A stretch of 64,000 nucleotides of DNA, from the NCBI RefSeq assembly GCF_988243305.1, contig NZ_OZ547136.1; one strand, 5' to 3'. A program made the translations under genes and the position numbers. Below are positions 52,130 to 64,000 of the stretch, piece after piece (position 1 is the stretch's first letter; each line of letters starts with the position of its first letter). The notes beneath the pieces are model-generated. The model was given only the letters and a program-made list of their open reading frames with translations, was not told the origin of the DNA and did not search any database.

Positions 52130-53902
52130 TCAGTTATTCTCTGCCTTCTTCACAACCTGAATGCTCAGCTCAGCCAGTGCAGTCGGGTTAGCAAAGCTCG
52201 GTGCTTCAGTCATCAGACACGCTGCCGCCGTGGTTTTCGGGAAGGCGATAACGTCACGGATATTGTCGGTGCCGGTCAGCAGCATGGTCAAACGGTCAAG
52301 ACCGAATGCCAGGCCTGCGTGCGGCGGAGTACCGTATTTCAGGGCGTCGAGCAGGAAGCCGAATTTCTCGCGCTGTTCCTCTTCGTTGATACCCAGAATA
52401 CCAAACACCGTCTGCTGCATATCACCATTATGGATACGCACAGAACCACCGCCCACTTCGTAACCATTGATGACCATATCGTAAGCGTTCGCCACCGCAT
52501 TTTCCGGTGCAGCTTTCAGTTCTGCTGCCGTCATGTCTTTTGGTGAGGTGAACGGATGGTGCATTGCCGTCAGGCCGCCTTCACCGTCGTCTTCAAACAT
52601 CGGGAAGTCGATAACCCACAGCGGTGCCCATTTGCTTTCGTCGGTCAGACCAAGGTCTTTACCCACTTTCAGGCGCAGTGCACCCATCGCGTCGGCAACA
52701 ATTTTCTTGTTGTCGGCACCGAAGAAAATCATATCGCCATCTTGCGCGGCAGTACGATCCAGAATGGCTTCGATGATTTCTGCATTAAGGAACTTCGCTA
52801 CCGGGCTGTTGATACCTTCCAGACCTTTCGCGCGCTCGTTAACTTTAATGTAAGCCAGACCTTTCGCGCCGTAGATTTTAACGAAGTTACCGTATTCGTC
52901 GATCTGTTTACGGGTCAGCGATGCGCCGCCCGGAACGCGCAGAGCCGCTACGCGACCTTTCGGATCGTTCGCCGGACCTGCAAATACTGCAAATTCAACG
53001 GATTTCAGCAGATCGGCAACGTCGGTCAGTTCCATCGGGTTACGCAGATCCGGTTTATCAGAGCCGTAACGGCGTTCGGCTTCCGCAAAGGTCATTACCG
53101 GGAAATCGCCCAGATCCACGCCCTTCACTTCCAGCCACAGATGACGCACCAGCGCTTCCATCACTTCACGCACTTGCGGCGCGGTCATGAAAGAAGTTTC
53201 CACATCGATCTGAGTAAATTCAGGCTGACGATCAGCGCGCAGGTCTTCGTCACGGAAGCATTTAACGATCTGATAGTAACGGTCAAAACCGGACATCATC
53301 AGCAGCTGTTTGAACAACTGTGGGGATTGCGGCAGTGCGTAGAATTTACCTTTGTGCACACGAGAAGGCACCAGGTAGTCACGCGCGCCTTCCGGCGTGG
53401 CTTTGGTCAGCATCGGAGTTTCGATGTCGAGGAAGCCGTGGTCATCCATAAAACGGCGCACCAGGCTGGTGATTTTAGCGCGGGTTTTCAGGCGCTGAGC
53501 CATTTCCGGGCGACGCAGGTCGAGGTAGCGGTATTTCAGACGCGCTTCTTCGGTGTTGACGTGGTTAGAGTCAAGCGGCAGAACATCTGCGCGGTTGATG
53601 ATAGTCAGCGAGGACGCCAGCACTTCAATTTCGCCGGTCGCCATATCGCGGTTAATATTTTTTTCGTCACGCGCACGTACGGTGCCCGTGACCTGAATGC
53701 AGAACTCATTACGCAGTTCAGAGGCCAGCTTTAACGCGTCCGCACGATCCGGATCGAAAAATACCTGCACGATACCTTCGCGGTCGCGCATATCGATGAA
53801 GATCAGGCTACCAAGATCACGACGACGGTTGACCCAACCACACAGAGTCACCTGCTGCCCCACGTGGGACAAACGGAGCTGTCCACAATATTCTGTACGC
53901 AT
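52130..53902 (-). CDS. aspS: Aspartate--tRNA ligase
   Basis: 590-aa class II aminoacyl-tRNA synthetase. Confidence 0.97.
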
Positions 53903-54211
53903 GAGATATCCCTTAACTTAGCTGCCGGCGGATGCCCCCTGCTGCGCAGGTGACCAAGTCGCAGCGTTAGCTGTATGTCACAACTGAATGAAAAAAGGCG
54001 GCTATTATACTGGAAATTCTGCCGCACCGTAAGAGCCTGGCCCGCGCTGGAACACCTCGTTACCACTTTATATCGGGCCTGAAATCAGACTCTACGCCAG
54101 TTTGCTATAAAGGTGTTGCCCGAACTCATAAAAATTAACAAAATTTGTCGTTCCGCCATCGGCTAATCGCATTAAGGTGAGAGGCACTATTTTGTTTTGT
54201 CAGGAGTCATC

Positions 54212-54778
54212 ATGCTTGAACTTAATGCTAAAACCACTGCGCTGGTGGTGATTGATTTACAAGAAGGCATCTTACCTTTTGCCGGAGGTCCACATACTGC
54301 CGATGAGGTGGTTAATCGCGCCGGGAAGCTGGCGGCGAAATTTCGCGCGAGCGGTCAGCCCGTGTTTCTGGTGCGCGTTGGCTGGTCTGCCGATTATGCC
54401 GAAGCATTAAAACAGCTGGTTGATGTCCCCTCCCCCGCGAAAGTGTTACCCGAAAACTGGTGGCAACATCCTGCTGCATTAGGTGCAACCGACAGCGATA
54501 TCGAAATCATCAAACGTCAATGGGGTGCGTTTTACGGTACGGATCTGGAGTTGCAACTGCGCCGCCGGGGTATCGATACAATAGTATTATGTGGGATCTC
54601 GACCAATATCGGTGTTGAATCCACCGCCCGCAATGCCTGGGAACTCGGTTTTAATCTGGTGATTGCCGAAGACGCCTGCAGCGCCGCCAGCGCCGAGCAG
54701 CACAATAACAGCATCAACCATATCTACCCACGCATCGCCCGTGTGCGCAGTGTGGAAGAGATCCTCAACGCATTATGA
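54212..54778 (+). CDS. yecD: Isochorismatase-family hydrolase YecD
   Basis: Start at [20 protein letters not shown]... (188 aa). Confidence 0.93.
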
Positions 54779-54885
54779 TTTACATCGGTCTGCCGCAATG
54801 GTCGCATCCTAAATGGGTGCGGTTGGGGATCACCAGCCTTGAAGAGTATGCCCGCCACTTTAACTGCGTGATACGGAATTTTTAA
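54775..54885 (+). pseudogene. yecE: 5' fragment of yecE, interrupted by prophage integration
   Basis: ATG overlaps the yecD stop (ATGA) and encodes [32 protein letters not shown], matching recalled YecE for about 32 codons; the frame then diverges and stops after 4 codons (IRNF*). Confidence 0.8.
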
Positions 54886-54997
54886 AAATCACTAAAGAAC
54901 GCCCAAGAGCATGTTTTTTATTTAGAAGAATCAAAGCGTTGTATTTCCATGTCATATAAAAATCGGCAAAGTTCATATGTAACAAAGTGTCCCAATC

Positions 54998-55046
54998 ATG
55001 CCCCAAAATGCCCCACAACAAATATTTTTGCCCCATGCATGCCCCA
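54998..55046 (+). repeat. Four direct repeats of (A)TGCCCCA in the prophage arm
   Basis: atgcccca at 54998, 55008, 55039 and tgcccca at 55029. Confidence 0.6.
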
Positions 55047-55067
55047 AAAAATCACTTTCCTTCACCC

Positions 55068-55119
55068 TTGACACTGTTTATCCATACAGTTAAAAATGAT
55101 ACTGTATACAAACACAGTG
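55068..55119 (+). promoter_or_regulatory. Promoter with two tandem LexA boxes upstream of the dinI-like gene
   Basis: TTGACA at 55068-55073; CTGT-N8-ACAG boxes at 55072-55091 (cactgtttatccatacagtt) and 55100-55119 (tactgtatacaaacacagtg); RBS agaggg before the ATG. Confidence 0.75.
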
Positions 55120-55132
55120 TAGAGGGACTTTT

Positions 55133-55381
55133 ATGCGTATTGAAATCTGCATAGCCAAAGAAAAAATGACTAAAATGCCAACCGGTGCTGTGGATGCGTT
55201 AAAGGAAGAATTAACTCGGCGCATCAGTAAGCGTTATGACGATGTAGAAGTGATCGTAAAAGCCACCAGCAATGATGGGCTTTCTGTTACACGCACAGCA
55301 GATAAGGATTCTGCAAAAACATTTGTTCAGGAGACTCTGAAAGATACCTGGGAGTCTGCTGACGAGTGGTTTGTTCACTAA
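55133..55381 (+). CDS. DinI-family DNA-damage-inducible protein (prophage-encoded)
   Basis: 82-aa [12 protein letters not shown]...[11 protein letters not shown] resembling E. coli DinI (MRIEVTIAK...TWESADDWFV). Confidence 0.85.
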
Positions 55382-55496: not shown

Positions 55497-55766
55497 TTAC
55501 ATTGTGTCTGGTTCTTCCGGCCACTCAATATCAGGTGCAGTTGATGTATCAACACGGTTCAGCAACACCCGATATTTATTCCATGCCTCCAGCAACGATC
55601 TTTCTTCCTCCGTTGCGATTTCCAGATCTACAGCATCCTGCAGTGGCGCAATATACTCACTGAATTCCTGGATGTAGAACTGTGTGGTGACGGTCTTCCA
55701 GCCATTCGGCTCCTGCTGTATCGAAGCATACCAGGCTATTTCAATATCGCTATGCTGCGGCAGCAT
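55497..55766 (-). pseudogene. Tail fiber assembly protein remnant (C-terminal Tfa domain with unrelated N-terminus)
   Basis: C-terminal about 50 aa ([45 protein letters not shown]) near-identical to the full tfa at 56546-57130; about 150 bp of DNA is a direct repeat of the tfa 3' end. Confidence 0.7.
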
Positions 55767-55822: not shown

Positions 55823-56491
55823 ATGGTGAAATCAATGAAAAAAAACACAGATGATGGGGCTAAAATTTACACACCACTTACCCTAAAGCTTTATGACTGG
55901 TGGGTTTTGGGAGTATCAAATCGGCTTGCATGGGGATGTCCTACAAAGGAACACCTTCTTCCACACTTTCTGGAACATTTAGGTAACAACCATCTGGATA
56001 TTGGTGTTGGAACTGGGTTTTATCTTACTCACGTACCTGAGAGTAGTCTGATATCTTTAATGGATTTGAACGAAGCTAGCCTGAACGCGGCATCTACAAG
56101 GGCTGGGGAATCAAAAATTAAACATAAAATTAGCCATGATGTTTTTGAACCTTATCCCGCGGCGTTACATGGTCAATTTGATTCCATTTCCATGTTTTAC
56201 CTTCTTCACTGCCTGCCTGGAAATATATCTACAAAAAGCTGTGTAATACGCAATGCGGCGCAGGCCTTAACTGACGATGGAACTCTATACGGAGCCACAA
56301 TTCTTGGCGATGGAGTTGTGCACAATAGCTTCGGTCAAAAACTGATGCGCATTTACAATCAGAAAGGCATCTTTTCAAACACAAAAGATTCCGAAGAAGG
56401 CTTAACACATATACTCTCAGAGCATTTCGAGAATGTTAAAACCAAGGTTCAAGGTACTGTAGTAATGTTTTCCGCTTCAGGGAAAAAATAG
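55823..56491 (+). CDS. Class I SAM-dependent methyltransferase of unknown specificity (prophage moron); start may be the ATG at 55835
   Basis: 222-aa ORF with Rossmann motif I (LDIGVGTGFY), acidic post-I residue (LMDLNE) and motif II-like FDSISMFYLLHCLP; no DNA-methyltransferase motifs (DPPY or PC dipeptide); local composition visibly AT-rich. Confidence 0.8.
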   Translation: MVKSMKKNTDDGAKIYTPLTLKLYDWWVLGVSNRLAWGCPTKEHLLPHFLEHLGNNHLDIGVGTGFYLTHVPESSLISLMDLNEASLNAASTRAGESKIKHKISHDVFEPYPAALHGQFDSISMFYLLHCLPGNISTKSCVIRNAAQALTDDGTLYGATILGDGVVHNSFGQKLMRIYNQKGIFSNTKDSEEGLTHILSEHFENVKTKVQGTVVMFSASGKK

Positions 56492-56545: not shown

Positions 56546-57130
56546 TTACTCACTGACAGGGTTCGTAGGCCACTCAATATCAGGTGCAGTTGATGTATCA
56601 ACACGGTTCAGCAACACCCGATACTTCTTCCAGGCTTCCAGCAACGAGTTTTCTTCCTCCGTTGCGATTTCCAGATCTGCAGCATCCTGAAGCGGCGCAA
56701 TATGCTCACTGGCTACCTGCATCAGGTTGTTTTTTGTTTCTTCCGCCTCCCGGATCCGGAACAGTTTTTCTGCTTCCGTATCCTTCACCCAGGCTGTGCC
56801 GTTCCACTTCTGAAACTCCCCTTCCGGCGATAACCAGGTAACATTTTCCGGTAACGGACCGAGTTCAGAAATAAATAACGCGTCGCCGGAAGCCACGTCA
56901 TAAACCGTTTTACCCCGATGGTCTTCAAAGAGATGCCACGATGACTCATCACTGTTGAAAACAGCCACGAAGCCAGCAGGAATATCTGGTGGTGCAATAT
57001 CGGTACTGTTTGCTGGCAGACCTGTATGAGGCGGAATATATGCGTCACCTTCACCAATAAATTCATTAGTTCCGGCCAGCAGATTATAAATTTTTATGGT
57101 CCGTGGTTGTTCACTCATTCTGAATGCCAT
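56546..57130 (-). CDS. tfa: Tail fiber assembly protein Tfa
   Basis: 194-aa ORF overlapping the stf stop by 1 nt; matches lambdoid Tfa. Confidence 0.92.
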
Positions 57131-59826
57131 TATGCAAGCCTCACAATGTAGTTAAATGCGATGTTTTTGACGGTGTTTTCCGCGTTACCCGCAGCGTTAA
57201 CGGTGATGGTATGTCCATGTGAACCAATCGCAACGGAGTGCGTATGAGCACCAATACCGACAGTATGCGCGTGTGCACCTGCAGATGCTGCTGTGCCGGA
57301 CAGTGAGTGGCTATGATTACCATCTGTACTGGTATTCGCTAACCACCCCGTAGACATACCTACTGAGCCTTGTACACCCCAGGTATTTTGACCTGAGCTT
57401 GTATAACCATATTGATAAGTATCTTTAAAAACACTGGGGTTAAATCGACGGCCATCTCTATGGCTGTGATTACCAGCTGCATTCGTGCTGCCACTTAAAC
57501 TATGGGTATGCGCACCAGTGTTATTCGTGGATTTAGTGCCGTAATCAAACGACGATGTGGTTTTCGTCCCCAAATCCGTACTGGATGCGCTGGCGCTGTG
57601 GGTGTGCGATTTAATGCCGTCCCGTTCCTGAGACAATACGGCACGACCACTGGCAGGTTTGCCCTTAATCGTCCAGCCACGCATATCAGGGATCACGCCT
57701 GACGGATAAGCGGCTGCAAGTTCCGGGTAGGCAGATTTGTCAAAAGTCTGCCCCTGCATCAGGGCATAACCAGACGGAACGGTATCCGATGGCCACGGGA
57801 TTGGTGCGCCAGGCGGATAAAACTGCTCTGATGGCGTATAGAGTGAATAAACTGTACCGTCCGTTAACCCTTCCGGCTTATTAGCAGAATATGCTGGTGA
57901 CGTATGAATCGTCACGCTGGCATTACTGGTATAATCCCATTGAATATTTACACCAGTCGCATAATTTCCGATTGCAACGTAAATATCGTAAGTATCACCA
58001 GATGTATTGACCCAGGCAAAATTTGTAAACCCTGTCGATGTGCGCTGCCATAAAGCACCAGTAATCCCCTTCGGATTACCATTACCTGCACGCAAAACAA
58101 GTTCAGATATACCTGCCTGTTGAGGTGAACCGACGTTAAATCCAGCGCCACCAATCAACGTAATTGAAACAACAGAACTCGCCTGTGGCATGGTTACCGT
58201 TGCTAATTTGAACCAACCAGCACCACCGCTGAATGACATTGTTGTTGAGTTAAGCGTACCAATATCTTTCGGCGTCAGTGTTATATCCTCCGAAAGCGCC
58301 TTACCATTCACCTTACGGTCAGAAGGTACCCGATCATTCGCATTGTCATTCGCTGCTTTAACTGCCTTCGGTGTCGCGGCAAGCGTTTCAGACGTACTGT
58401 TTGTCGCACTGCTGAGCTGTACTATCCCCTTTTTCGTCGTGCTCGCATCCTCAAGCGCCACGGCGGATGCAATATCCTCTGCCCGTTTTGCCGCTGTCTC
58501 AGCGCGCGTTGCTGCGGATTCTGCCGTACTTTTGCTCTGTGCTGCCGCTGTCGCACTGCCAGCAGCCTCTGTCGCCTTTGTGGATGCCGTCGTGGCGCTG
58601 CTCTTCGCTGCTGACGCCTGTCTGGTCGCCTCATCTTTTGAAGCAGACGCCGATGATGCCGATGACGCCGCCGAACTGGCGGACGATGCCGCTGCCGTTT
58701 TTGAGGATTCTGCGCTGGTTTCCGACGCTTTCGCGTTCGTTTCGGATGTCTTCGCTGAGGAAGCAGACCTCGCTGCTGCGCTGGCCTGTTCAGTGGCTTC
58801 GCCAGTCTTCGTTGTGGCTGTTGAAGCGGATGATGCGGCGCTTTCTGCCGATTTTCCGGCGGCGGTGGCACTGACTGAGGCCTGCCCGGCACTTGTTGAT
58901 GCGGCACTGGCGGACGACGCAGCCGCTGTTTTTGAATCTGCCGCAGCTGAGGCACTCTGTCCCGCTGCCGTTTCAGAAGACCTGGCGTTCGTCTCGGACG
59001 TTTTGGCCGCCTTCGCAGAATTTGCTGTCGCCGTTGCCGAGGAAGCTGCGCTGCTGGCGCTCGAGGCTGCGCTCGTTTCTGATGATTTTGCCGCCTCTTT
59101 TGAAGCCGACGCATCCCGGGCTGAGGTGGCAGCTTCTGACGCTTTCGTGGTCGCGGTGGATGCAGAAGTGGCTGCTGATTGTTGTGACGCTGCGGCATTC
59201 GTTTCTGACGTTTTCGCCGCAGCGGCACTGGTGGCCGCCGCGCTTTTTGAGGACTCTGCAGCGGCAGCACTTTTTTCCGCTTCAGTGGCCTTTGTTGATG
59301 CCGTTTCTGCGCTGGAAGACGCTGACTGAGCCGACGACGCGGCCTGTCCGGCTGACATGCTGGCTGCGCGTGCTGAGCCTGCAGCATCAGTCGCATGGGT
59401 TGCCGCCTCACGGGCTGATGTGCTGGCATCGCCGGCTGACTTCTTCGCGGCTGCCGTGTTCTGTGCCACTGCGGACGCGTTACGCTCCACCTCTTCCACC
59501 ATCACTTCAAAACGGCGCAGTGCCTCCGGTCGGACATCATCCTCCGTCATGGCACCGAGAAAATCATTCAGCGTACCTGGTCTGGAACCTTCATAGACGG
59601 TAATGGTCCCGGCATGTGAAGGCGGAAAACCTTCAACCAGCAGGGTGACGCTGTACTGACCATGCTCAACATCCATGCTGTAACGTCCGGCTTCATCCGG
59701 ATTTTCAGAGGCCACCGTGTTCACCACCACCGTGCTGCTGGTTCGTCTGGCCTTCAGCACAATGGTGCAGTTCTGTACTGGTTTTCCTGTGCCATCTTTA
59801 AGCACGCCAGAAATTTTTACTGTCAT
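57130..59826 (-). CDS. stf: Side tail fiber protein Stf
   Basis: 898-aa ORF with conserved N-terminus ([17 protein letters not shown]...), long Ser/Ala/Thr-rich repeat region, and C-terminal HxH-repeat region (HTHS, GAHTHS, GNHSHS, GSHGHT). Confidence 0.93.
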
Positions 59827-59977: not shown

Positions 59978-60577
59978 TCAGAAACGGTATCCGATACCAA
60001 CAATAAATGCATCCGTTCGCCAGTCGCCACTACCGGAACCTTCATAAGCAAGGTCAATGGTCACGGATTCGGTCGGGTTAAACTGCACGCCAGCCCCCCA
60101 CGCCAGAGACGTGTTGCTGTGGCGACCGTCATCACTTCCGGTCAGCACATCGTGCGTTTTCCCCTTGTTGTCAGTTACGCGGAGATAATCCCCGGAGAAA
60201 GTCGACACACGGCTGTAAGACACACCCGCCATCGCATACGCGCTGAACCATTCATTCACGCGCACAGACGGCCCCGCCATTACGCTGAACCAGCGGTTAC
60301 GAACGGAATCTTCATGCCAGCGGGTATCGCTGTAACGGGTCAGCTGGCGATTCTTGTCTCCTGCATAGCTGAATGACGTCACCAGCCCCAGTGTGTCCGT
60401 AAACTCATAACGGTATTTCACGTTAATCCCGTTCAGATCATCACTGCCGGGGACGTTCGTCGAGGCATGAAGATACCCCGCGCTCAGCGTGGACTGATGT
60501 TCAGACGCCCATGCAGGCGCACCGGATACGGCCAGACAAATGGCTGCGGACAAAATTGCTGCACAAACTTTACGCAT
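59978..60577 (-). CDS. lom: Outer membrane protein Lom (Ail/PagC/OmpX family)
   Basis: 199-aa ORF with signal peptide and beta-barrel ending in the aromatic residue typical of outer membrane proteins (GIGYRF); position between J and stf as in lambda. Confidence 0.92.
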   Translation of the reverse strand: MRKVCAAILSAAICLAVSGAPAWASEHQSTLSAGYLHASTNVPGSDDLNGINVKYRYEFTDTLGLVTSFSYAGDKNRQLTRYSDTRWHEDSVRNRWFSVMAGPSVRVNEWFSAYAMAGVSYSRVSTFSGDYLRVTDNKGKTHDVLTGSDDGRHSNTSLAWGAGVQFNPTESVTIDLAYEGSGSGDWRTDAFIVGIGYRF

Positions 60578-60647: not shown

Positions 60648-63600
60648 TCAACGAATACTGATGCCGGAAGCGGCTTTTTTGGTCACAATCACCGTACAGT
60701 CGGTGATATTGCCTGCCCCCTGATTGCCTTTCTGGAAAATCTTAAACTCCAGAGTGACGCTACCACCACCACTAGGCATATCAATAACTGCACTGTAACT
60801 ACCGGGAATGGCCCCTTTAGTTTCTCTGGATGCGATTAATACGCCGTTTTTGCGAACTTCAAAACCATAACCCGTGTATCGCGTGCCTCCTGGGTTATTT
60901 CCGCTCCCCGGATCGTCATACGCTATACCGTTAAAAATAATGGGCGGAATAATAATCTGGCGGTCAAAGTTATGATCATCGCTGATGGTGACTGTAACCG
61001 TACCGTTTGGTGTTTCCGTGTTACCCCACGTACCGACTTTTTTCGGGAAGGCTTTTGATACAGCTTTAACGAAATCCCCTCTGACCTGGGTCGCCTCCAG
61101 CATGCCCTTAATCGTACAGTTCTGGTTAATCTTGACATTGTTGAGCGTTCCTGAGTTCGCATTCACACTGCCACTGATATCCGCATTTTTAGCGGTCAGC
61201 TTTCCGTCTGATGTCAGGGAAAATACCGGAGGACTGCCACCGCTGGTAATGGTGGGGGCCGTCAGGCGCTTCAGGAACACGTCGTTCATGAATATCTGGT
61301 TGCCCTGCGCCACAAACATCGGCGTTTCATTCCCGTTTGCCGGGTCAATAAACGCGATACGGTTAGCGGCAACCAGAAACTGGCTCAGCTTGCCTTCCTC
61401 CGTGTCCTCCATGCTGAGGCCAATACCCGCGACATAATGTTTGCCGTCTTTGGTCTGCTCAATTTTGACGCCCCACATGGCATTCCATTTATCGTTAGCG
61501 TCCTTCCACTCTTTCGAAAACTCCTCCAGTCTGCTGGCGTTATCTTCCGTCAGCTCAAAGTTTTCCAGCAGTTCCTTGCCGAGATGCGTTTTATTGATCA
61601 ACCCTTTATAAAAATTCAGATAACCTTCCGCATCATCGCTCGCCCGACCGACGGCCTCCACAAATGCCGATTTACCAACGGTGTTCACGCTGCGGATATA
61701 AAAGTAATAATCATAACCTGGCTTAATATTGCTACTGGCGGCTATCCAGTACAGCGCCGTACCAAGATAACGCGCGCTGGTTTCAACCTGCCTGATATCG
61801 ATAATCCGCTTTTCCGAGAACCAGAACTCAAACTGCACCGTCGGGTCATATACAGCCAGTTTCGGGACCGCTGTTATCTGAAAATACCCTGGTATCAGTT
61901 CAATAGTGACAGGCGCTGCCGGTGCCGCAATCCGGAACGATACCGATGCCGGATCGCCCTGCTGCCCCCACGCATTTACCGCCCGGACCGTCAGCGTGTA
62001 ACGCCCCAGCGCCAGTTGCCTGAAGCGGTATGTGGTTTCCGCCGTCCGGGCCGTGCTGACCAGCCGCTCACTGCCGTCATCCGCTGTTACGGTCAGACGG
62101 AGCAGGAAGCTCACGCCCTTCACCACCTTCGGCGTGTCCCAGCGCGCCAGCACCTGGTATTCCCCGCTGTCTGCGGTGACTTCTGCGGTCAGGTGCTGCA
62201 CCGCTGGCGGCGTGACACCATTTACCGTGCCGCTCTGGTCGCCGTCAAAGTGCGCCCCGTTATCCACGATGGCCTCTTTTTCCGGTACATGCTGCACGGC
62301 GGTGATGGCATACGTGCCGTCGTCGTTCTCACGGATACTCACGCAGCGGAACAGGCGCTGGCGCAGCGTCGGCAGCTTCAGCCCCCATACGCTGTATTCA
62401 GCAACGCCGTCAGGAACACGGCTCACTTTCACCTTCACGCCGTCGGTGACGGACTGAACCTCCACGCTGACCGGACTCCCCTGCCCGTCAACCAGGCTTA
62501 TCAGCGTGGTGCCGGAAGATGGCAGCGTGATTTCACGGTCGAGCGTCAGCGTCCGGGTCTGGCTGTTTACCGCCAGCACGCGCCCGCCGGTGCGGATACC
62601 GGCATAGTCATCATCGCAGATTTCAATGACATCGCCCGGTACATGGCGAAGCCCTTCGGCACCCACGCTGAAGTCCACGGTCTGCGTTTCCAGCAGTTCT
62701 GTTTTAATCAGCCACAGCCCGGCGCGGTGTGCCTGCCCCCGGCTGGTACAGCCAAAAGCATCCATCTTCGTGACGTTACGACCGTAACGGGCAATGGCCT
62801 GCGTGTCCTCCACAAGCTCTGTCGCCGTCTCCCAGCCGTTATTCGGGTCAATCCAGTTCACCTCAACGGCATTATGGCGGTCCTTCAGGGCGCTGAAGCT
62901 GTAGCGGAACGGCGCGCCATCATCCGGCATCACCACATTACTGCGGTTATAGGTCCACACCTTATCCGACGGTCGGTCCTGCACGAACGTCAGCGTCTGC
63001 CCGTTCCATACCGGCATACAGCGCATCGCCGAGCAGAAATCACTGAGCACATCCCACGCCTTACGCTGTGTGGTCAGCCAGGCATTACAGGTGATGCGCG
63101 GCTCCGTGCCGCCAAAACCATTCGGTACCAACTGGTCGCAGTACTGGCCGATAACGTACAGCGCCCATTTGTCCACATCTGCCGCACCAAGACGTTTCCC
63201 CATGCCGTAGCGCGGGTGGGTCAGCATATCCCACAGACACCAGGCCATGTTGTTGCTGTATGCTGGCTTTAACGTTCCGTCCCAGATACCGCTGTATTGC
63301 CGCGTCTGCGGGTTATAGTTCGACGGCACCTGCAGAATACGCCCGCGAAGATGATAATTACGGCTCACCTGCTGGCTGCCGAACTGCTCCGAGTCCACCT
63401 GCACGCCGACCAGTGCCGTGTTCGGGTAGCACTGTTTCACATCGATGATTTCGGTGTATGACGACCAGAGCGTTTTGTTCTGCAGCTGGTCTGTGGTGCT
63501 GTCCGGCGTCATCCTGCGCATCCGGATATTAAACGGGCGCGGCGGCAGGCTACCCACCACCACCGAGGCCAGATACTGCGAGGTGGTTTTGCCCTTAATG

Positions 63601-64000
63601 GTGATGTCTTTTTCCGTCACCCAGCCACCGTTACGTTGTATCTGAACCAGCAGACGGACTTCCGACGGATTCCTGTCACCCTTTGAGGTGTTTTCCACCA
63701 GTGCCTGTACACCGAAGGTAAAGCGCAGACGGTCGATGTTTGCAGACGTAATGGTGCGGGTGATCGGCGTGTCATATTTCACTTCCGTACCCAGCACCGT
63801 CTCGGAGCCGGAGGATTCAAACCCCTCCGGCGGTGTCTGCTCCTGCTCACCGGCACGGAACACCACCGTGACACCGGAGATGTTGGTATTCCCCTCAGTG
63901 TCCAGCACCGGCGTACTGTTCAGCAGCACGCTTTTTAATCCATCCACCGGACCTTCAACCGGCCCTTCGCTGATGGCATCGATCACACTCAGCAACTGCG
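60648..64000 (-). CDS. J: Tail tip host-specificity protein J; 5' end lies beyond the window
   Basis: At least 1115 aa closely resembling lambda J from [11 protein letters not shown] onward; lambda J has about 20 further N-terminal residues, so the true start is outside the window. Confidence 0.93.

Follow-up and report, generated by a model that had tools for sequence, protein, structure and literature searches.

The locus examined here raises the question of what the serine-, alanine- and threonine-rich shaft of a predicted side tail fiber represents: an expanded repeat encoded by repeat-prone DNA, as had been proposed from the letters of the sequence, or a structured element of the fiber. 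Our analysis indicates that this seemingly low-complexity stretch is better read as a phase-perfect coiled coil than as an unstable repeat. The value of this result lies mainly in correct annotation; the architecture of the family was published for Ur-lambda in 2025.

The stf gene, its neighbours and its N-terminal domain

The stf gene occupies positions 57130 to 59826 on the minus strand of the window, by which we mean the whole 64,000-nt stretch of DNA that was analysed, and encodes 898 aa followed by a stop codon; the open reading frame list reproduces exactly the coordinates and length originally given. The accompanying call of a side tail fiber is supported by the phage_tail_N domain (PF08400, E=4e-70 across the full-length profile), by a match to PDB entries 9e7m/9mgh, and by the position of the gene. 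As is typical of lambdoid side tail fibers, stf is located downstream of J and lom and immediately upstream of tfa, and the same J-lom-stf-tfa order is found in other prophages, with stfR-tfaR likewise adjacent in this order in K-12 Rac. Besides phage_tail_N, the Pfam profile search identified the Collar and Phage_fiber domains, and sequence matches to PDB entries fall at both ends of the product and in its middle.

On its 3' side, the stf stop codon is overlapped by the start codon of tfa (56546-57130, minus strand; 194 aa), whose product belongs to the Caudo_TAP family (PF02413, E=3.7e-44) and is predicted to be a tail fiber assembly chaperone, so that a putative chaperone directly adjoins the fiber gene. 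Upstream, lom (59978-60577, minus strand) encodes an Ail/Lom outer-membrane protein (Pfam Ail_Lom, E=3.7e-122), and is preceded by the C-terminal part of a gpJ-type central tail fiber (60648-63995, minus strand, from the open reading frame list); the frame as listed starts at an internal TTG, the window ends at position 64000, and of the prophage it covers no more than the final ~9 kb. At the equivalent position, the relatives L001 and L004 are annotated with a 'host specificity protein J'. No NCBIfam model matched Stf, Tfa or the neighbouring methyltransferase.

A database protein from E. coli (P0003), which differs from the stf product at one residue, is present on 44 contigs. Compared to K-12 stfR, the substitutions in stf are distributed over codon positions 1, 2 and 3 as 9, 11 and 39; of the codons affected, 36 are changed synonymously and 19 non-synonymously, a pattern consistent with purifying selection on this frame. 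We are confident that stf is intact and that its product is a side tail fiber of the StfR/lambda-Stf type, belonging to a lambdoid prophage that is inserted beside yecD-aspS in E. coli. Side tail fiber genes of this kind are ordinary and already well known from E. coli prophages.

The N-terminal attachment domain (StfN) comprises aa 1-94 (59545-59826, minus strand) and was delimited by the Pfam and PDB matches, the latter being to the tail fiber chain of 9e7m/9mgh (E=3e-47), which is presumably the Ur-lambda side fiber; its attachment role is taken from the work on that phage (PMC12617516). There, Stf was described as consisting of StfN (1-91), a linker (92-101), a trimeric proximal coiled coil (102-393), a hinge and a receptor-binding domain of the gp37 kind with OmpC as its ligand, and the side fibers, four per virion, are homotrimers anchored by a dodecameric collar (PMC12617516). 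In the present protein, the heptad layout assigns aa 95-113 (59488-59544, minus strand) to the linker and the start of the helical rod, ahead of the Ala/Ser heptad consensus, and the single-chain AF2 model is helical from aa 95 onward.

The Ser/Ala/Thr region as a heptad rod

The original prediction described short imperfect tandem units over about 57900-59500, with AAKTSETNA appearing three times. A repetitive array does exist, but its true period is seven residues and it is confined to 58459-59487 (minus strand; aa 114-456), while 57900-58458 holds the 44-aa module and the beta-rich domain described below in place of heptads; similarly, the 9-mer occurs only twice, and it is the 8-mer AKTSETNA that is found three times, at residues 204, 274 and 358. 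Within aa 114-456, an array detector identified 49 units, uninterrupted and without any register shift, with the consensus A-[TS]-S-A-[TS]-[AS]-A. The columns of the tabulated heptads are strongly biased, with Ala at position 7 in 46 of 48, Ser at position 3 in 37 of 48 and Ala at position 4 in 33 of 48. Residue autocorrelation gave z values of 5-10 at all multiples of 7 up to a lag of 147, whereas the remaining lags were without signal. In the AF2 model of a single chain covering aa 93-500 (mean pLDDT 73), residues 95-499 are helical save for one short break at a modelled hairpin. This model was used for secondary structure only, as folding of the single-chain rod into a hairpin is an artefact, and the same artefact has been reported for full-length lambda Stf (PMC12617516).

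The heptad phase and the predicted helicity are what would be expected of the long proximal helical rod that follows a short linker in lambdoid Stf proteins, a likeness that is drawn from sequence and AF2. Taken together with the homology to lambda, they indicate that the Ser/Ala/Thr region is the counterpart of the trimeric coiled coil in the proximal part of Ur-lambda Stf and that, by analogy, this rod would be trimeric as well. At ~0.148 nm per residue, the rod would measure ~50-53 nm, some 15 nm more than the 34-heptad rod of lambda, which comes to about 38 nm in Ur-lambda. An Ala/Ser core is atypical for coiled coils, and for this reason the packing geometry is taken from lambda only. The heptad consensus itself did not come up in our literature searches, which yielded only the coiled-coil assignment in lambda (PMC12617516) and a remark on StfR, which was singled out as a low-complexity outlier (PMC12695832).

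That remark and the extreme composition of the region (Ala 36%, Ser 24%, Thr 12%), along with the poor hydrophobic packing of Ala/Ser core positions, might favor an intrinsically disordered low-complexity spacer, or a linker of the glycosylation type, over a structured coiled coil. However, such a spacer would have no reason to keep a strict seven-residue phase without an indel over 343 residues, nor would it confine indels to multiples of seven as described below; in addition, AF2 predicts a continuous helix, and the homologous region of lambda forms a rigid trimeric bundle as determined by cryo-EM and cryo-ET (PMC12617516). We therefore consider a disordered spacer highly improbable and regard the region as a helical rod.

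DNA repeats, fiber length and nested reading frames

If the shaft were repeat-prone, slippage or recombination of repetitive DNA would readily shift the number of units between isolates and thereby tune the length of the fiber. Some observations point in this direction. Across the wider family, arrays comprise 4 to 49 heptads, most commonly 33/34 or 48/49, and lambda Stf has 34, exactly 15 fewer than the 49 found here. In a global alignment, residues 1-307 of the query correspond to lambda 1-307 (84% identity) and residues 413-500 to lambda 308-395 (80%), leaving a block of 15 heptads (aa 308-412, 105 aa, 315 bp; 58591-58905, minus strand) which also occurs in StfR and is absent from lambda Stf, although the repeats leave its exact placement ambiguous. 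Between proteins that are otherwise 92-98% identical, indels come in exact multiples of seven residues (7 and 105); relative to the query, two stretches of 7 aa and 105 aa are missing from P0124. Finally, the DNA displays a weak 21-nt periodicity above codon-shuffled controls (z 2.5-6.5), and repeat spacings are mostly multiples of 21.

The DNA itself, however, does not bear out the proposed repeat-proneness. At the lowest score threshold, Tandem Repeats Finder returned no array between 56500 and 60500 but only two trivial 9-bp matches, and the idea of a DNA tandem repeat was dropped accordingly. The 49 units of 21 nt share a mean identity of 43% (46% for adjacent units, with a maximum of 86%), the longest exact direct repeat is 12 nt, and identical peptides are encoded by different synonymous codons. 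The near-identical head-to-tail DNA repeats by which contingency-type loci are recognized are therefore absent from the rod, and copy-number polymorphism among close alleles, a further hallmark of such loci, was observed not for the heptads but only for a separate 44-aa module. Nor does the length of the rod vary among close alleles: from matches present in ~3,576 of 5,426 complete E. coli genomes, 48 full-length ones were sampled (88-99.8% nt identity, K-12 stfR included), and not one displayed a net change in rod length; those genomes contain ~17,400 stf places in total. In line with this, of the 120 database proteins closest to the query, almost every one has this 343-aa array, with its end at residue 456. 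The length differences between isolates map to the 44-aa module and to distal modules instead, and instability of the rod by slippage or recombination appears improbable. The suggestion that changes in repeat number could alter fiber length between isolates thus stands only in part: heptad number does differ family-wide and isolate length does vary, the latter in other modules, while the length of the rod showed no net change in the 48 sampled matches.

The 44-aa module is present here in a single copy (aa 463-506; 58309-58440, minus strand) and was delimited from relatives and from a match to tail fiber S of phage Mu (PDB 5yvq/8ju3), in which aa 440-505, including the module, correspond to residues 90-156 (E about 5e-10). 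Two copies occur in P0034, three in L001 and four in L005; copies 1 and 2 of L001 are 94% identical at the nucleotide level and share an exact run of 86 nt. The module is followed by a beta-rich distal shaft domain (aa 507-668; 57823-58308, minus strand), for which no sequence match was obtained in Pfam or PDB and which is defined by strands predicted by AF2: a model of aa 457-672 from a shallow alignment of 8 sequences contained ~10 beta strands at a mean pLDDT of 51.7. Foldseek with this model against PDB gave nothing at E<=0.001 (TM<=0.34). In relatives of 1092-1172 aa the beta-rich domain is present in two copies. The length differences between isolates come from the 44-aa module (1-4 copies), from duplicated distal modules and from a hypervariable insert in the tip; accordingly, length differences between alleles are to be sought in the 44-aa and distal modules and not in the rod.

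The same region leaves long open frames on both strands, which had been regarded as spurious, and our analysis agrees: they arise from codon composition, since codon-shuffled controls are similarly open in most frames. According to the open reading frame list, frames of 379 aa (plus strand), 335 aa (minus strand, in another frame than stf), 236 aa (plus strand) and 135 aa (plus strand) are nested within stf. The antisense frame of 379 aa (58190-59329, plus strand), rich in Ala, Asp, Glu and Val, is a by-product of GCN/TCN/ACN codons, and codon-shuffled controls are equally open (P=0.30). The 335-aa frame (58422-59429, minus strand), rich in Arg, Gln and Pro, lies in the +1 frame of stf. A first codon shuffle had made the +1 frame appear unusually open (P=0.002), which turned out to be an artefact of the Val/Leu/Met-rich flanks, as shuffling within the array alone gave P=0.74.

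Two further antisense frames, 58467-58874 and 58893-59603, lie in one frame (58467-59603, plus strand) and offer the best candidate for a real gene overlapping the heptad region: only 1 stop was observed where 8.3-8.6 are expected under synonymous shuffles (P<=0.0003), and in K-12 stfR and lambda stf the frame is open to a similar extent, although these are homologs and hence not independent tests. The frame is open because T-to-A codon junctions are strongly avoided, being almost absent with a TA odds ratio of 0.10. Such avoidance also occurs in distal stf, where NCT junctions followed by A number 3 against 10.5 expected even though no antisense frame is open there, and an overlapping gene was therefore rejected as an explanation of the stop depletion. 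Moreover, the antisense frame is interrupted in the present allele, its product would be a Leu/Pro/Arg/Trp-rich mirror of Ala/Ser/Thr codons, and the other open frames match the codon-shuffled expectation (P 0.28-0.74). We thus give almost no credence to an overlapping gene, and gene callers should disregard long open frames nested in the rod region.

It might be speculated that the rod serves as a length ruler that is held at few discrete sizes (34 versus 49 heptads, with a quantum of 15), and that the divergent synonymous codons and the scarcity of T-to-A junctions could have been selected as a safeguard of this long repeat against recombinational collapse or RNA cleavage, as opposed to neutral decay of old duplications. 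At present, we consider this idea unlikely, if conceivable.

The receptor-binding tip and comparison with known systems

The C-terminal part of the protein (aa 656-898; 57133-57861, minus strand) is, as had been proposed, a tip of the T4 gp37 type; it comprises a collar domain, an HxH needle and a head insert. A phmmer search against PDB aligned query residues 656-898 to residues 15-242 of the chain of 2xgf, the T4 gp37 tip, with E=1.3e-84, and Pfam placed Collar (PF07484, E=5e-12) at aa 673-720 and Phage_fiber (PF03335) at 768-781. Where at least seven HxH motifs had been noted, exactly seven were counted, at aa 741, 773, 787, 838, 852, 861 and 870 (57211-57606, minus strand), and all seven align to HxH motifs of gp37. 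Across 43 distinct related tips, these positions hardly vary. In T4, seven iron ions are held by the HxH pairs of gp37 (PMC11705849), with octahedral coordination by histidines from three chains (2xgf; PMC11705849). Judging by the conservation of the motifs, they are predicted to form a metal-coordinating needle core here as well. The alignment of the 43 tips is near-invariant throughout except for a hypervariable insert at ~aa 776-838 (57313-57501, minus strand), located between HxH motifs 2-3 and motif 4 in what corresponds to the head region of gp37. P0036, P0039, P0018 and L004 are identical elsewhere and differ in this insert, which is thus likely to be the determinant of receptor specificity; host-range differences between alleles are to be sought there.

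By homology to Ur-lambda and T4, the following architecture may be proposed. Each fiber would consist of three chains, whose N-terminal domains (aa 1-94) would dock on the tail tip and lead via a flexible linker into a long alpha-helical coiled-coil rod, whose 49 heptads run without interruption around a core of small Ala and Ser residues. The single 44-aa module, common to the Mu gpS tail fiber, would come after the rod, and the beta-rich domain would form the distal shaft. The C-terminal 243 aa would make up the gp37-type tip, in which seven HxH pairs per chain, stacked on the trimer axis, may coordinate metal (iron in T4), and the hypervariable insert would present the receptor-binding surface. 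The adjacent Tfa would act as folding chaperone of the tip, and the fiber as a whole might speed reversible adsorption to a surface receptor. The receptor of the lambda and T4 fibers is OmpC. What the analysis shows directly is the homology of the domains, the heptad period, the helicity as predicted, the constancy of length and the variation in modules, whereas trimerization, the binding of metal, the length of the rod and the role in receptor recognition are drawn from analogy to these systems.

Among known systems, K-12 Rac StfR (1120 aa), whose alleles bear the database name 'prophage tail fiber N-terminal domain-containing protein', shares the N-terminal domain, the very same 49-heptad array, with 94.4% nt identity and no difference in length, a single 44-aa module, the gp37-type tip with seven HxH motifs and a downstream tfa. 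Compared to StfR, the present allele, with 898 aa, is minimal in its distal part, having one beta-rich domain and no 'ATKL' repeats, and it differs in the head insert, of which it possesses a variant of its own, and in YPELAAAYP, where a rare Glu stands in place of the Lys of the retrieved relatives. Ur-lambda Stf (774 aa; PDB 9e7m/9mgh; PMC12617516), for which record LC730321 served as reference, P0155 (774 aa) having proved to be a different protein, likewise has StfN, a linker, an Ala/Ser-rich proximal coiled coil, a shared module, a gp37-like HxH tip and a Tfa chaperone. It differs in having 34 heptads, so that the present rod is 105 aa longer, in a distal shaft whose sequence is unrelated to the beta-rich domain, in its 8 HxH motifs as opposed to 7, and in the head insert. 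With T4 gp37 (PDB 2xgf), the likeness extends over the whole crystallised tip, which aligns to the C-terminal 243 aa with collar, needle and the seven HxH positions conserved, but is confined to it: beyond the tip, gp37 bears no relation to the present protein, the head-region stretch that separates HxH 3 from HxH 4 has another sequence and another length, and the neighbouring gene here is a Tfa of the lambda type (Pfam Caudo_TAP). In Mu tail fiber protein S (PDB 5yvq/8ju3), only the counterpart of aa 440-505 with the 44-aa module is alike, while the N-terminal domain, rod and tip are different.

Prophage setting of the side tail fiber gene

The stf gene occupies exactly the coordinates of the original prediction, 57130-59826 on the minus strand, where the ORF list contains a real reading frame of 898 aa. 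Upstream of it, on the same strand, lie lom (59978-60577) and a gpJ-type central fiber gene (60648-63995) which reaches the end of the window, and the tail fiber assembly gene tfa (56546-57130) has its start codon on the stf stop codon. Positions 1-54800 appear chromosomal, based on ORF layout and on the neighbours aspS and yecD (52130-54778), and thus, of the lambdoid prophage, only the terminal ~9 kb fall within the window. The insertion site is given by the prophage end adjoining yecD and aspS (54197-55381), a region that includes yecD, encoding an isochorismatase-family hydrolase (NCBIfam PRK11440, E=2e-114); the final phage-side gene before yecD is DinI-like (55133-55381). A database protein differing from the product at a single residue, P0003, is found on 44 E. 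coli contigs and is annotated as 'prophage tail fiber N-terminal domain-containing protein'.

A 163-nt stretch from the 3' part of tfa (56560-56722) is repeated with ~90% identity (147/163) at 55510-55673, within an 89-aa ORF representing a Tfa C-terminal remnant (55497-55766, minus strand). Between both copies, on the opposite (plus) strand, resides a class I SAM-methyltransferase gene (55823-56491; 222 aa, GC 41%), and the segment looks like a cargo ('moron') cassette put into tfa by recombination. A sister prophage sharing the yecD-aspS insertion site (L004, NZ_AP022298.1, 5719-9862), the proximal stf rod DNA of which is 99.8% identical, carries a serine acetyltransferase in place of the methyltransferase and a macro-domain protein gene between stf and tfa; its Stf of 889 aa has a different tip with 5 HxH motifs within the last 260 aa. 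In the partial genome of Escherichia phage vB_EcoS-569R4 (ON470598.1, 3001-3962), the stf N-terminus is 100% identical to aa 1-103, and the locus is disrupted: upstream stand pieces of lom and a tail fiber fragment in inverted orientation, and the gene is truncated by the record end.

A rod of in-phase heptads

The shaft had been described as repeat-prone and as built from units such as AAKTSETNA in three copies at 57900-59500. This view needed correction: the peptide occurs twice (its 8-mer AKTSETNA three times), repeated peptides are spaced by multiples of 7 without exception, and aa 114-456 (58459-59487) form 49 heptads with zero register shifts. Residue autocorrelation across aa 106-455 yielded z = 5-10 at all lags divisible by 7, as far as 147, with no signal at any other lag. 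The consensus is A-[TS]-S-A-[TS]-[AS]-A, with Ala at position 7 in 46, Ser at position 3 in 37 and Ala at position 4 in 33 of the 48 heptads tabulated. A single-chain AF2 model predicted helix at aa 95-499 with one short break (mean pLDDT 73), bent into a hairpin that is a modelling artefact. In lambda Stf, StfN (residues 1-91) is described as joined by a flexible linker (92-101) to a coiled coil (PMC12617516); phase, predicted helix and this architecture together identify the shaft as a coiled-coil rod. The sole non-heptad rod indel among close relatives is a 4-aa 'TSAS' duplication at aa ~222-225 of the related P0059 (1055 aa), where a coiled-coil stutter would be expected.

The underlying DNA is not repeat-prone. 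Tandem Repeats Finder reported no array, the longest exact direct repeat is 12 nt, and the 49 units of 21 nt share a mean identity of 43% (maximum 86%; adjacent units 46%). A 21-nt periodicity is detectable above codon-shuffled controls (z 2.5-6.5). Synonymous codons differ among the three AKTSETNA copies and likewise between two copies of an 11-residue peptide.

Long open frames on both strands (379 aa, plus; 335 aa, minus; 236 and 135 aa, plus) are present as predicted. Their designation as spurious holds for the +1 frame and one antisense frame, which are equally open upon codon shuffling within the array (P=0.74 and P=0.30); the unusual openness hinted at by a first shuffle test arose because the flanks had been included. 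A further antisense frame is stop-depleted, with 1 stop observed versus 8.3-8.6 expected from synonymous shuffles (P<=0.0003), which stems from codon junctions being almost free of T|A: in the array, NCT|A is absent (28 NCT codons; 8.0 expected), any xxT|A occurs 3 times versus 14 expected, and the TA odds ratio is 0.10 versus 0.72 in the chromosomal part of the window. An overlapping antisense gene was considered and rejected, since distal stf, where the antisense frames are closed, is likewise poor in NCT|A (3 versus 10.5 expected); the open frame is thus not read as an overlapping gene. Substitutions relative to K-12 stfR number 9/11/39 at codon positions 1/2/3, which fits selection acting in the stf frame. 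The same T|A avoidance occurs in K-12 stfR and lambda stf.

Length variation among relatives

Variation in repeat number had been proposed to alter fiber length between isolates. Length does vary, but the differences between isolates stem from parts other than the heptads. Megablast with the rod DNA alone against 5,426 complete E. coli genomes, counting matches to at least 80% of the rod, found it in 3,576. When the ranked matches were sampled at even intervals, each of the 48 full-length ones (99.8% to 88% identity) was in one piece with zero net length change, among them K-12 Rac stfR at 94.4% identity; heptad number in this lineage is thus not detectably variable between isolates. Similarly, the best 120 database homologs (820-1188 aa) have equal array lengths wherever the N-terminus is complete, the sole exception being a protein with a 4-aa insertion in the array.

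Relatives differ in steps of 132 bp, which reflect the copy number of a 44-aa module: one in the present protein, two in P0034, three in L001 and four in L005. Two copies in L001 are 94% identical at the nucleotide level and have an 86-nt exact run in common, marking the module, by its sequence, as a true recombination-prone repeat. Longer alleles also have a duplicated beta-rich domain and additional ~40-aa 'ATKL' repeats; the present protein represents the minimal architecture within the lineage.

At the family level, 50%-identity cluster representatives having the N-terminal domain contain 4 to 49 units (modes 33/34 and 48/49). Genuine lambda Stf (774 aa) is 84% and 80% identical in the two parts flanking a 105-aa gap and therefore has exactly 15 heptads fewer, and in P0124, segments of 7 aa and 105 aa are missing between flanks 92-98% identical; these indels preserve heptad phase. 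At the textbook rise of ~0.148 nm per residue, 15 extra heptads would lengthen the rod by ~15 nm.

Domain anatomy and relation to known fibers

The assignment as a side tail fiber proved right: the N-terminal attachment domain (aa 1-94; Pfam domain 1-134) matches phage_tail_N (E=4e-70) and the tail fiber chain of PDB 9e7m/9mgh (E=3e-47). Further matches are a module common to phage Mu tail fiber S (aa 440-505; PDB 5yvq, E about 5e-10), a Collar domain (aa 673-720; Pfam, E=5e-12) and a GxHxH 'Phage tail fibre repeat' (aa 768-781; PF03335). For aa 507-668, AF2 pLDDT was 51.7 and Foldseek returned no significant match for the fold. A single rare substitution, Glu702 (~57721-57723, 'YPELAAAYP'), lies within the otherwise invariant collar domain; the residue is Lys in P0003, in all relatives retrieved in full and in no fewer than 95% of the 43 distinct tips aligned.

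As predicted, the tip (aa 656-898) is of the T4 gp37 type, PDB 2xgf being matched over the entire crystallised tip (E=1.3e-84). At least seven HxH motifs had been noted, and there are exactly seven (aa 741, 773, 787, 838, 852, 861 and 870), all opposite a gp37 HxH. Alignment of the 43 tips revealed near-invariance except at aa ~776-838, the head region from HxH 2-3 to HxH 4, where P0036, P0039, P0018 and L004 differ among alleles identical elsewhere.

Taken together, the original observation is partly confirmed and its interpretation partly supported. In T4 gp37, a row of seven iron ions on the trimer axis is described as being coordinated by HxH pairs (PDB 2xgf; PMC11705849), and homology between this tip and that of lambda Stf is long established (PMC12617516; refs 71-72 of PMC3945230). 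The Ser/Ala/Thr shaft is likewise a known structural element, a coiled-coil rod with a small-residue core, and this stf belongs to a known type, with almost its exact sequence known as well.
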